A stretch of DNA of 64,000 bases from Azolla caroliniana (Eukaryota > Plantae > Polypodiophyta), in NCBI GenBank assembly GCA_043228905.1, contig JBHGNT010000013.1, forward strand, positions 2,356,001 through 2,420,000, given 5' to 3'. Positions within the stretch are counted from its first letter, which is position 1, and each line of letters begins with the position of its first letter. This document shows positions 7,001-56,009 of the stretch, in pieces. The notes under the pieces were generated by a model, which was given only the letters and a program-made list of their open reading frames with translations, searched no databases and was not told the DNA's origin. A program made the position numbers and the translations under genes.

Positions 7001-9492
7001 AACCACTTCAGCCTAGTAGAATTTGGGCATGCTCTTCTCCTCCTCCATTGCCCTTGCAGCGTCGACAATCGATCGTTGCGTGACTCGGGTGGGAACCATT
7101 GGGGTTTTGGACTAGGAAGAGAAAGTATTTGAGACGAGTTTATAGTTATGGATAGATTCTTAGAAAGAGATATAGAAATTTCGTGAATCCCATGAGTGTA
7201 TTGTATTCGATTAATCAATATTTAGATAAGAATATGTAAAAGATTGAAAGAAAGAGATTAAAAAGAACTTGTGAATCCCACAAGTATAAATTATGTTGTG
7301 AATCCCACGAATATAGTTTGTTAATTGGTGTTTTAGGAAATATATCCAATTTCCAAATAATCCACACACTTATTACATTGTGTTCCCCATCCTTATATGG
7401 TGATGAGAGAGTCTTCACAATCCATGCTTAAACTTTATGCTTTTCCTATCAATAGACTATATGCTTTATTTAACATGCTTTTTCTAAAGTGATCATGCTT
7501 TTTCTAATTTCTGCGTTTTTTATTGACTATAGTGTTCATGCACGCTACAGGTGCATGTGTAGCTTTTTGTTTTATCATGTGATTTTGTAAAGTTTATCCT
7601 AGCGTGAACTTGCATTTTTATGTGGGACATCTACTTTTTAACACTAATGAAATGGTAGTGAAATGGTAAGACATTACATTATTAACATGGAGGTGCAAGG
7701 TTCGAATCTTGCCATGTGCATGTAATGGTTAGTTTGTTATTTTCTTCTTTTTTCTTCATATTTATTCAATCGGTTATTTTATATTATTTTCATGTAGTGT
7801 ACTAAATACACTACGACACTCGCCCCCTCCGAAACCACAAATCCTCCGGCATGTGTCGAAGTTGTCGGTGATTGTTAGCCTTCTGTGTCTGGTCTCCACC
7901 TGGTTGGTTTCGTCACTAGTCGTTTTCGTTTGCCGGCTCCATCTGTTCGCCGGTTTTCAGTTGCTTGCTCAACCCGGTTTCCGGTTACTGGCCCTCGAAA
8001 TTCTTCCTTACTTTTAGTACGCTCCGTTTCTCTCGTTATGTCGACTTTGTCTCTCCATTTCGAGCACAACCATTCTTTCCACCCAACCCATTTTCACCAT
8101 CCGATCCACCATAGTCTTCGTTCACTCTTTGCATAGCCATGGTTGATTGTCGCAACTCCTCGTGCTCTTCTTGAGCATAACCATTCATGTCTTGTCAAAT
8201 TTGCTTGCCCCGCTTGGTCCTTCTTATCCGTGGTAGTGCCTTTACTTGGCGTTGTCCTTGTCTTTATCAATGTCGAATTCTCTTCGAATCTCCGGTTGAG
8301 TCGGATTAGCTTCTTTCCAAATCGGTGTCGTCCGATCGTCTTTCGGTTGGATCGGCTTCCGTTCCGATTTGGAGTTGGTTGATTGGTTTTTACCGATTCG
8401 GCCCCCTTTCGGATCGGTTTAGACTGATCGGTTTTTATTAGTATTTGCTTCCTTTTCCTTGTTTTCACCGACCTCGACCGGTTCGACCTCCGGCATTTCT
8501 TTCCGGATCGGTCTCGTCTAGTCGGCTTTTGGTTGGAATGATTTCCGTCCGCATGGAACTCGACAAATTGGATTTTGTCCGAATCCACTTCCGCTTGGTT
8601 TAGCTTTCGTTTAGACCGGAATTCCGGCCGGATCATCTTGCGTCCGGACCCACTTTCGGCTTTACATTCTTTGCTCCCACCTCCCATCTCTCTGGTCTCA
8701 CGTTGGTTCTCGGACACAACCGCCGAAGTCTCTAGAATTACTGGGTAGGATTCCTCGGTATTATCGTCCTCCATCGTTTCACCCATAGCCACCTTCTCGG
8801 CTATCTCTCCATCATATGCATCGTCTTCGACCATTGTTTTCTCTCCGTCTCTTCGGTGTCACATTGCCTTCCAGATGCAACTGCCAGAGTCTCAGGAATT
8901 GGTGATGGTAAATTCTCGATATGGTCATCGTACATTGATTCGTCCATAGCCACCTCCGATTCGATGTAATGTTTTGTGCGACTTCCTTAATCAAGTCTGC
9001 CTCGCACTCTTTATCTCCATCAATTATGAAAGTATCTATTGTGCTTACCTCTTTCTCAACCAATGTCTTGAACACTCGTATCCCGAAATCTTCTTCTACA
9101 CTTGAAGTGGTGTTCGCCACTCTTAGCTTATGAGCCTTATCGTTCGCTATCATTCTTTCGCAAGACAAGAGGGTATCTTGTTCTACACCCTCTCCCGTGG
9201 TACCTTCATATTGTATTTCGGCCTTCATGTCGGCTACATCGTTTGTCCTCAATCGACCATCCTTCATGAGCCATGTACTTGTTGACAAGATTTTCATATT
9301 CCTCTCATCATGTCTCCCACATACCCTTCCGACTTCGGCCCAATCCTCGGTAAGACCGTTTGCACCATCATCATCTTTAAGCTCGATCCCGATGTCCATC
9401 TTTTCTTTCCGATCAATCGATCTTACAAACATTAGGACTTTATACTCCCCCACCAATTGTTGTTCCCGCTCCGAGAGTCGAGCAAAACGGTG

Positions 9493-10263
9493 TGTTGGGA
9501 GACGGGTCCCTCCGGATGGGAATGGAGAAGAACAGTGCCGACGAACAATCGGAAGCCGAGGCCGATAGGCCGAGGCCGAAATCGGAAGAGGAGTACCCGG
9601 CTACGGAGAGCCATATGATACAGACCCAGTATGAACCGGATGAGGAGTACCTGGCTACGGAGAGCCGGATGGTGTAGACCCGGTATGAACCGGATGAGGA
9701 ATACCCGGCTACGGAGAGCCGGATGATATAGACCCAGTATGAAACAGATGAGGAGTACCCAGCTACGGAGAGCCGGATGGTGCAGACCCGGTATGAACCG
9801 GATGAAGAGACATATTCGTAAATATGTTTCTGAGAGTCCATCGAGGCTATATTTGTAAATAGCCGAAAAGTCATATTAGTATAAATATGACTTAGGGCAA
9901 ACTTTTAAGATGAGTTGTAGTTGTTATTTTCTTGTTGGTGCAAGAAGAGAGAGCGTGTAACAGTGTACAGGTTGAGAGAGAGAGAGAACGAGGTCGTTGC
10001 CTCTGTTGTAACCGCCGCCTGTGGCGAAGATCGTGAGCACGAGGTCGTTGCCTCCGTGAACTCACTGTTTGTACATTCCAATATAGTGATAGTTTGCAGC
10101 CTGTAGGCTGCCGTGGTTTTTCCCTCAGTTTGGGTTTTCCACGTAAACATCCTCTCTACCTTTTCTCTCCTTTGTGTCGTGCATTTGTTTCCCGTTTTCT
10201 GTGTATGATCCTAAGCTCGGTTGTGGCCGAGCGTTGCACAAAGGGAGCGTTGAGTTCCCGTCA
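9493..10263 (+). mobile_element. Copia-type solo LTR (771 bp) with 54-bp tandem repeats, inserted in the Trp-element gag
   Basis: TG..CA; TSD CGGTG/CGATG (perfect CGATG in the 40358 copy). Start TGTTGGGA..GGTCCCTCCGGATGGG resembles the Copia-2 LTR. Gag reads through once it is removed (EFEHR|FARLSERE). Confidence 0.85.
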
Positions 10264-10701
10264 CGATGCTCGAACTCTAGGAATGCTTCCGTTGCACTTC
10301 GGTGGGTCTTCTCCGATGCCACCCATTCATCGAACGCTCGCCGATCTCGTCCCTTAAATCTCTCGTAGTCCTATGCCTCTCGTAAAGCTTCTTCAAAGGA
10401 CCCCCATGTTGGGTTTTGTTGCCATATCTTGTAGATTTTCTCTTGTAACCCATCTGTGACTACCCGGCTGAAGGATATCACTTGCAATCCTTCCAGTATC
10501 CCACATCGCCTAAACGCTACCTTGTATTCACCTAGATAGCGTGACACATCATTTCCGTTGAATTGTTCGTTTCTTTGCACAAACCACTCTATTGCCGACT
10601 TTATCTCCGACATCGCACGTTGCTCTTGTTGCATCCGCTAAATTATCATCATCATTATGGTCATCGCCTCTTGTTGATTCTCCATCTCCTTGCCACCCGC
10701 T

Positions 10702-55326: not shown

Positions 55327-55372
<46 letters not shown>

Positions 55373-56009
55373 TGGCGAGAAAGAGAGAGAGAAAAAGAGA
55401 AGATATTCTGGTTCAGACTGTCAAGGCGTTAGCTTGACAAAAGAAGATTGAACAAGAGAGGAAAAGAAAGAGGGAACAATGGCTATATTTTTAATATAAT
55501 AGGAAAACATATAAGAGCAAGAACTAGAATATATTTGCCAAAGACTGGTGTTGAACCAGAATGGTTCTAACAATACAATACGTCCTATTTATATAGGAGT
55601 AGTATGTGCCCCTTGGATGTTTTTAGGGTCATGATACCCTTTGGGATGTTGTAGGGTCATGATACCCTTTGGGATATTGAGGGGTCGTTGACACCCTTTG
55701 GGATATTGAAGGGTCAAGGCACCCTTTGGATATTCATAGGGTTACATTATCAATATTATAATATAGCAAATTATGATATTTTTACATAAAATATTTATAA
55801 CCTAATGGCTAGAGTTGAGTGTTCCTCTTTAGGAGGTCACGGGTTCAAGTCATCCTAAACCTCATGGGGTTTCATTTACTCATGACATCTTGTATCCATT
55901 CTCATTCTAATTTAATACATTCATTCTTCTCTTATCATTTCATTCATCTCTTCTGGTGATCTCTTTTTATCGTTCTTCAGTAGCTCTATCCTCTATCTTG
56001 GTTCTCACA
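49740..56009 (+). mobile_element. 3' part of a Tcn1-like chromovirus family C (integrase, chromodomain, 3' LTR split by family B)
   Basis: VVDRFTKMAHF, HPQTDGQTER, EYEITTILDSK..YYLVDW..TWEP. LTR from about 50615-50907 resumes at 55893-56009. Confidence 0.75.
50908..55887 (-). mobile_element. Degenerate two-LTR Tcn1-like chromovirus family B
   Basis: LTRs 50908-51395 and 55419-55887 (clearly diverged), TSD TCTTG, PPT near 51396-51410. Fragmented gag (54388-55328), RT/RH (52732-53826, YLDD), integrase (51880-52647), chromodomain (51391-51843). Confidence 0.92.

Follow-up and report, generated by a model that had tools for sequence, protein, structure and literature searches.

The long terminal repeats (LTRs) of retrotransposons in a 64,000-nucleotide stretch of the Azolla caroliniana genome (contig JBHGNT010000013.1, positions 2,356,001 to 2,420,000; hereafter the window) were found to carry a tRNA-like RNA polymerase III (Pol III) promoter cassette, composed of an A box, a variable-loop (V-loop) motif and a B box and directed outward, antisense to the element. 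The carriers are classed here as three families of Tcn1-type chromoviruses (A, B and C) and an element primed by tRNA-Trp (the Trp element), and they lie within a nested cluster of gypsy and copia elements. Judged by its sequence, this outward tRNA promoter module of autonomous LTR elements is real and selected, and apparently not previously described. The literature searched contained no account of autonomous chromoviruses whose LTRs carry an antisense tRNA promoter, with subscription journals and Repbase reports lying outside that search, and passages of PMC13570524 name only Cassandra and Helenus/Ajax. The best single explanation, to which a probability of about 45% is given, is that the cassette is a TFIIIC/TFIIIB site which would shield or open the RNA polymerase II (Pol II) promoter of the LTR.

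The cassettes of the window are as follows.

7656–7708, plus strand: Trp-LTR cassette with A box, AGGTG and B box, box spacing 43, antisense to the element
11330–11382, plus strand: Trp-LTR cassette, boxes intact
14202–14254, plus strand: Trp-LTR cassette, G52>T
32302–32311, plus strand: truncated Trp LTR, B box only
42087–42139, plus strand: Trp-LTR cassette, R57>T
46443–46495, plus strand: Trp-LTR cassette, G52>T
61791–61843, plus strand: Trp-LTR cassette, boxes intact
11864–11917, minus strand: family A cassette, spacing 44, long hairpin fold
50646–50698, minus strand: family C cassette, spacing 43
51306–51359, plus strand: family B cassette of the 3' LTR, spacing 44
55798–55851, plus strand: family B cassette of the 5' LTR, spacing 44

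One B-box change is present in three of the six full Trp-LTR copies, T54>C is found in the second copy of family A, and both LTRs of element B hold tRNA-like sequence with A and B boxes. All motifs quoted in an earlier sequence-only reading of the window were recovered at the positions and on the strands it had given. A regular expression for A and B boxes 40–50 nt apart gave seven matches, every one of them inside these LTRs, where 200 local dinucleotide shuffles yielded 0.005 on average (maximum 1). Because this expression was modelled on the motifs of that reading, the blind test on loci outside the window, described below, is the stronger control. The orientation antisense to the element, also proposed there, is fixed by the primer-binding site (PBS), polypurine tract (PPT) and open reading frames: elements A and C lie on the plus strand, and the Trp element and B on the minus strand. 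The distance from the B box to the LTR 5' edge is 16 nt in A and 36 nt in B, and, as read from the sequence, ~30 nt in C (from an inferred edge) and ~110 nt in the Trp element. No cassette had an ARAGORN or Rfam tRNA match at E<=10, in scans which did detect four tRNA-Pro genes. Six further stretches in the window that resemble LTRs (one gypsy, five copia-type) have no cassette; in one of them there is a two-mismatch match that was not reported by the profile scan.

The structure of the carriers is given by the following features.

50908–55887, minus strand: complete family B element of 4980 bp with gag, reverse transcriptase (RT), integrase (INT) and chromodomain, frames broken, target-site duplication (TSD) TCTTG
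50908–51395 and 55419–55887, minus strand: family B LTRs, 430 of 466 aligned bases identical
51396–51410: family B PPT
55588–55597: TATA of the family B 5' LTR, with a self-primer at 55552–55562 that is the complement of 55405–55415
42605–43036, plus strand: family A 5' LTR with TGTCA...TGACA ends and a cassette at 42621–42674 (minus strand)
42751–42763: motif of the family A 5' LTR resembling a heat-shock element
42788–42797: TATA of the family A 5' LTR, with a self-primer at 42822–42832 that is the complement of 43040–43050
~50616–50907, resuming at 55893–56009, plus strand: family C 3' LTR, PPT and first bases deleted, edge inferred, TATA at 50840–50852
7072–7818, minus strand: 3' LTR of the Trp element, its PPT following on the plus side from 7819
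10702–10719, minus strand: PBS of the Trp element, directly after the LTR end at 10722

The sequence-only reading had counted four independent families as carriers, a count that was reduced by the LTR alignments. The LTRs of A and C align through U3 with a score of 138 (shuffled 73+/-8, maximum 100.5), and A, B and C are therefore counted as one lineage; the alignments A-B (139 against a shuffle maximum of 138.5) and B-C (102.5 against 98.5) are marginal only. Families B and C match PF24626 and PF00385, with the aromatic-cage residues of the chromodomain visible by eye after the integrase, and the family A copies end before the integrase. A, B and C are best classed as sister families descended from one ancestor within a Tcn1-type chromovirus lineage, the resemblance to SM-Tcn1 being judged by eye. 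The LTR of the Trp element is unrelated to theirs. This element has a PBS which we take to match the 3' end of tRNA-Trp and holds a Gag-like remnant, its longer relatives carrying DUF4100 and an aspartyl protease, and it is likely a non-chromovirus Ty3/gypsy element. The cassette carriers of the window are accordingly counted as two lineages and not as four independent captures.

Outside the window, 42 aligned SH3-chromodomain sequences (two from the window and 40 of 119 matches) were used as query, and the sample consisted of the best 80 of 107 metagenome loci, picked by protein with the LTR ignored. Five loci with <200 nt after the match were left out and 75 were scored by the number of mismatches over 15 box positions. 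At <=2 mismatches an antisense cassette was found in 60 of the 75 loci, against 2/75 on the sense strand and 2/70 in a coding control, and at <=1 mismatch the counts were 53, 0 and 0, respectively. The spacing between the boxes in these 60 cassettes was 44 in 35, 43 in 22 and 41–42 in three, where 44 and 43 are the geometry of class I tRNAs with and without position 20a. The LTR heads that come from the window or show a PPT (n=64) have a median identity of 59% and fall into 25 clusters at 80%, with the B box 11–63 nt from the LTR edge. Presence across LTR clusters and blind loci indicates that the cassette is a feature of the LTR at the family level, as the sequence-only reading held, and not a copy-specific insertion of a short interspersed element (SINE). 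The Trp cassette or the LTR of family A is also present in contigs of five sequencing runs (organisms A, B, C, D and F), and in a profile scan of 311,957 bases the matches were confined to LTR heads and tRNA or tRNA-like genes. Further cassette-bearing LTR-like starts with other spacers were seen in L061 (612–665), L069 (585–639) and L048 (143–195), located away from the 3' LTR of the matched element.

The profile was built on 55 of the 64 rows (21 of 25 clusters), the other nine having a score >3 or another spacing. Information content reaches 1.60 bits at the defined A-box positions, 1.54 at positions 44–48 and 1.57 at the defined B-box positions, and elsewhere 0.44 bits in the anticodon arm and 0.36–0.38 at acceptor positions. 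Divergence was assessed in 136 pairwise comparisons among 17 of these families whose chromodomain stretch is open and in register. Between families, identity was 0.91 at the defined A-box positions, 0.83 in the V-loop and 0.88 at the defined B-box positions, compared with 0.40 at fourfold codon sites and with 0.38 in the anticodon arm, 0.38 at positions 1–7, 0.36 at positions 62–72 and 0.38 in the spacer. The proposal that boxes and spacing are conserved beyond the flanking U3 was in this way upheld, a spacing of 43–44 being kept in 57/60 cassettes. The degeneracy of the cassette tracks the promoter consensus, with R at positions 9, 15 and 57 and positions 10–13 and 59 free, and G53, T55, A58 and T47 are invariant. 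The V-loop lay outside the rule by which cassettes were selected, and positions 46–61 match GTCnnnnGTTCRAnYC, the extended B box of TFIIIC/TFIIIB-targeted sites (PMC3159450). Upstream of the A box, AT content over 52 nt is 82% and 10 of 21 clusters have TATAW, which resembles the situation at plant tRNA genes (PMC11700998). These observations point to purifying selection on the boxes and their spacing in the Tcn1 lineage. A Mantel test of coding against spacer distance was not significant (p 0.14), likely through saturation.

The cloverleaf, by comparison, is not conserved, in agreement with the sequence-only reading. No stem covaries in the 21 clusters, own-partner pairing of the tRNA stems was no better than pairing with another family's partner (p 0.14–0.86), and at the Levitt position pair A:C prevails. 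A run of four T residues (T4) precedes the LTR edge in only 7/21 clusters, with the first T4 lying 1–909 nt away; neither a terminator nor a 3' end is conserved. Since the boxes are conserved while no stem covaries and no terminator is shared, the pattern is that of a type 2 Pol III promoter, kept by selection as a DNA signature of the TFIIIC type and not as a tRNA.

The family A cassette was found to fold into a long non-cloverleaf hairpin (z -3.3), not remarked in the sequence-only reading, in which the B-box side is paired to the D/anticodon side, whichever of the two strands is folded. It is seen at 11864–11917 and 42621–42674 of the window and in L014, L019, L047 and L065, and in weaker form in L006, L029 and L045. 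A rod hairpin common to the whole clade was not supported, as 2/28 diagonals had p<0.01 uncorrected and neither was in the family A register.

The following course of events would account for the TFIIIC/TFIIIB site. The promoter of a tRNA gene or SINE would have been captured once into an ancestral U3 and then inherited with the LTR, and a second capture, or an old transfer, would have brought it into the Trp-primed lineage. TFIIIC on both boxes would place TFIIIB on the AT-rich stretch between cassette and TATA, giving a nucleosome-poor block between the flanking chromatin and the Pol II promoter, and any Pol III transcript would run outward, away from that promoter. With open chromatin at its outer edge, the LTR may keep the element's promoter shielded from the heterochromatin of its likely landing sites. 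The cassette is located between the LTR 5' edge and the TATA, the A box lying ~104–252 nt from the latter. It has been reported that a fission-yeast tDNA barrier requires the A box and TATA besides TFIIIC (PMC2040200), and such a requirement would account for the retention of both boxes at their spacing in place of a lone B box. Moss chromoviruses are concentrated in heterochromatic islands (PMC7466625), which would provide a motive for a barrier. Binding of TFIIIC to the cassette is considered probable, and a barrier or opening role, once TFIIIC is bound, is somewhat favoured. More tentatively, a heterochromatin-seeking autonomous lineage may have domesticated a tRNA promoter as a portable insulator, so that every new insertion would carry a TFIIIC/Pol III barrier of its own, with a second, unrelated LTR lineage doing likewise and the host being seeded with very many TFIIIC sites.

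Several observations weigh against this explanation. The identity at A- and B-box positions is partly circular, as 9/64 rows (4/25 clusters) were dropped before the profile was made. Eleven of the 75 loci have >3 mismatches (L001, L022, L039, L051, L052, L057, L068, L071–73 and L080); several of them are cut off by other DNA, but in L022, L051, L057 and L071–73 the LTR start is there and the cassette is decayed or missing. All 80 loci come from similarly named assemblies, so that the host species may be few. In the Trp lineage, 2/20 defined against 22/96 other positions vary and selection is not demonstrated; in the run contigs with the Trp cassette, variants reach >=12% at six positions (9, 13, 24, 26, 30 and 56), too few to test it. 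By eye, the cassette is lacking in Selaginella SM-Tcn1 and in the first 400 nt of the assembled transcript of Physcomitrium RLG1, and as RLG1 is abundant and expressed, the module is not required by all Tcn1 elements. Three distant elements from viral-contig scans (L081–L083) had no cassette at the LTR edge either, and scans of viral contigs for the Trp Gag gave no elements. In view of its absence from SM-Tcn1, the RLG1 stretch and these three elements, the cassette is best regarded as a gain inside a Tcn1 sub-lineage and not as a Tcn1 essential. Fixed orientation lends no support, because the yeast barrier is orientation-independent. The family A hairpin of ~25 bp has z -4.3 to -5.6 in five of the six members folded, and no AAAA run occurs on the cassette strand within the cassette body (0/21 against 4.4 expected, and 0 against 5.3 in 34 clusters; column shuffles, post hoc). 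A pure barrier accounts for neither the hairpin nor the lack of AAAA.

Among other explanations, it is possible but unlikely that the cassette is a divergent upstream activator, with TFIIIC/TFIIIB directly boosting initiation at the LTR TATA whatever the chromatin state. The same conservation of the boxes speaks for it, and there is a precedent in the tRNA-like A/B element which lies upstream of the Leishmania U2 snRNA and governs this neighbouring gene (PMC4950102). That gene, however, is a Pol III gene. The genomic RNA of the elements cannot be a Pol III product because the sense strand of element B has 32 T4+ runs, and the variable distance between A box and TATA among families indicates that the geometry is not fixed.

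A similarly low probability is given to an antisense Pol III transcript, as a hairpin or by read-through from the 3' LTR across the PPT, which would regulate the element or feed small-RNA pathways. Retention of both boxes and of the AT-rich upstream stretch is consistent with transcription, T4 is somewhat depleted in the body (2/21 against 4.6 expected, p 0.09; 3/34 against 7.5, p 0.02), and the ~25-bp hairpin of family A is accompanied by column biases which fit the same register with ~55% pairing. The defined antisense transcript suggested by the sequence-only reading is nevertheless weakened by the lack of a conserved terminator or 3' end. Moreover, folds reach z < -2 in only 2/21 clusters, the comparison of own- and foreign-arm duplexes gave p 0.06 (0.17 without family A), and T4 occurs within the cassette in 6/55 rows.

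It is improbable that the cassette serves as a targeting device, either by offering a landing pad to elements that target Pol III or by forming, on the cDNA end, a TFIIIC tether that steers integration. TRE5-A is drawn to B boxes that stand alone (PMC3159450), the cassette is placed at an end of the cDNA, and tRNA or tRNA-like genes occur close to Tcn1 fragments in L003 (two tRNA-like genes, 560–614 and 844–898) and L013 (tRNA-Asp, 128–201). However, a check of 52 LTRs, six without a relative to compare, gave no pile-up of insertions upstream of the A box: in 46/52 an alignment to a relative starts at the A box and in nearly every case continues for >100 nt or until the contig stops, with two breaking at 59 and 88 nt. 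Element B, which is inserted in the 3' LTR of family C, lies 210 nt upstream of the family C A box, and a landing pad brings its carrier no obvious benefit.

Slightly more improbable is a role for the sense RNA, which would pair with a host tRNA through tRNA-complementary motifs of U3 in packaging or strand transfer. Analogues are part of the 3' PBS of Ty3 and the tRNA-like sequence in U3 of HIV-1. The antisense orientation and the place just after the PPT would fit, and conservation of the V-loop would be natural. Families A and B, though, are predicted to be self-priming, with 11–12 nt of the region following the TATA complementary to the sequence that follows the 5' LTR, and self-priming is reported for Tcn1 (PMC6317226). 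The free positions 10–13 and 59 would also break contiguous pairing to one tRNA, and G53, T55, T47 and G19 show none, or almost none, of the changes that wobble would tolerate. That the cassette is a neutral remnant left by an inserted tRNA or SINE is very improbable: although the cassette was not seen by eye in RLG1 or SM-Tcn1 and is decayed in some copies, boxes 0.83–0.91 identical beside fourfold sites and spacer near 0.4, with fixed spacing, contradict it for the Tcn1 lineage, if not for the Trp lineage.

Cassandra, named as precedent in the sequence-only reading, was found to be less close to the cassette elements than the tRNA-derived Helenus (PMC10886601). In Helenus/TRIMp3, as here, tRNA-derived LTR sequence is conserved around boxes A and B and is not a functional tRNA, the TSD is 5 bp, and there is one plant case, in Selaginella (PMC10886601). 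Helenus is, however, non-coding and 311–1263 bp long, with transcription proposed to start from that promoter (PMC10886601), whereas the cassette elements are 5-kb gag-pol chromoviruses with a TATA and an outward cassette (element B is 4980 bp long and has matches to Gag, RT, INT and a chromodomain). In addition, Helenus-1_SMo, the one family checked, is sense-oriented, and the cassette is antisense (60/75 against 2/75). The cassette elements are placed outside Helenus by these two features, size/coding capacity and promoter orientation. More Repbase LTRs are reported to hold tRNA parts, the paper analysing only miniature terminal-repeat retrotransposons (TRIMs) of <1000 bp (PMC10886601), and such LTRs may sit in Repbase undescribed. 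Cassandra shares with the cassette elements an internal Pol III promoter in plant LTRs; its promoter is of the 5S type (type 1) and makes the element's own RNA, and it is a non-coding TRIM (both per PMC10886601).

Like the cassette, the tDNA barrier of Schizosaccharomyces pombe cen1 has an A box, a B box and an AT-rich upstream region beside silenced repeats (PMC2040200), but it is a host tRNA gene at a fixed locus, and the module described here is degenerate, mobile and a putative barrier. The B-box targets of Dictyostelium TRE5-A share GTCnnnnGTTCRAnYC with positions 46–61; they belong to the rDNA and tRNA sites of the host and have no A box carried by an element (PMC3159450), and targeting is not seen here. 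With Tcn1 elements (PMC6317226, PMC2864245, PMC7466625) the carriers share the aromatic cage of the chromodomain, the self-priming complement, TGTCA...TGACA ends and the PPT, and Gag and chromodomain are similar by eye; they differ in the cassette itself, which the passages on Tcn1 do not mention. Among plants, Tcn1-type chromoviruses have been reported in mosses and club-mosses only (PMC6317226); on sequence grounds, this distribution and a plant-type telomere motif in the window pointed to a non-seed plant, likely a moss, as host. By eye, the SM-Tcn1 LTR contains a stretch complementary to what follows the 5' LTR and looks self-priming, although a passage of PMC2864245 reports no evidence of this.

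The module bears on the question of how chromodomain retrotransposons keep their expression after landing in silent chromatin, for which a selected, element-borne tRNA promoter is a concrete candidate that can be tested by point mutants. To our knowledge, yeasts and animals are the groups in which tDNA-type barriers have been demonstrated, and plants are not among them. The naturally diverged families, of which there are dozens, would also yield a selection-derived profile of plant TFIIIC sites free of the constraints of tRNA structure, including the GGTY of the V-loop, and box-bearing LTRs in high copy could titrate TFIIIC and shape nuclear organisation.

Derivation of the Trp cassette from family A was not supported, as free positions are <=0.49 identical (median 0.33) and the median between families is 0.37. 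At the loose ends of contigs with the Trp cassette, further A-box-like motifs lie in register with the same V/B segment. A short telomere-like TTTAGGG repeat at 47280–47293 marks a rearrangement junction within a Trp element.

Between cassette and TATA, the U3 of 8/21 LTR clusters holds GAAnnTTCnnGAA arrays (11994–12006 and 42751–42763 in the window), which we take to resemble heat-shock elements. Other families have repeats of the CACGTG/CATGCA type at the same place.

The window also contains four intact tRNA-Pro(TGG) genes on the minus strand (293–364, 15173–15244, 17813–17884 and 58185–58256). They sit in a unit of ~1 kb repeated at 98–99% identity among the retrotransposons, and copia-type LTRs break this unit ~310 and 480 nt upstream of the gene.

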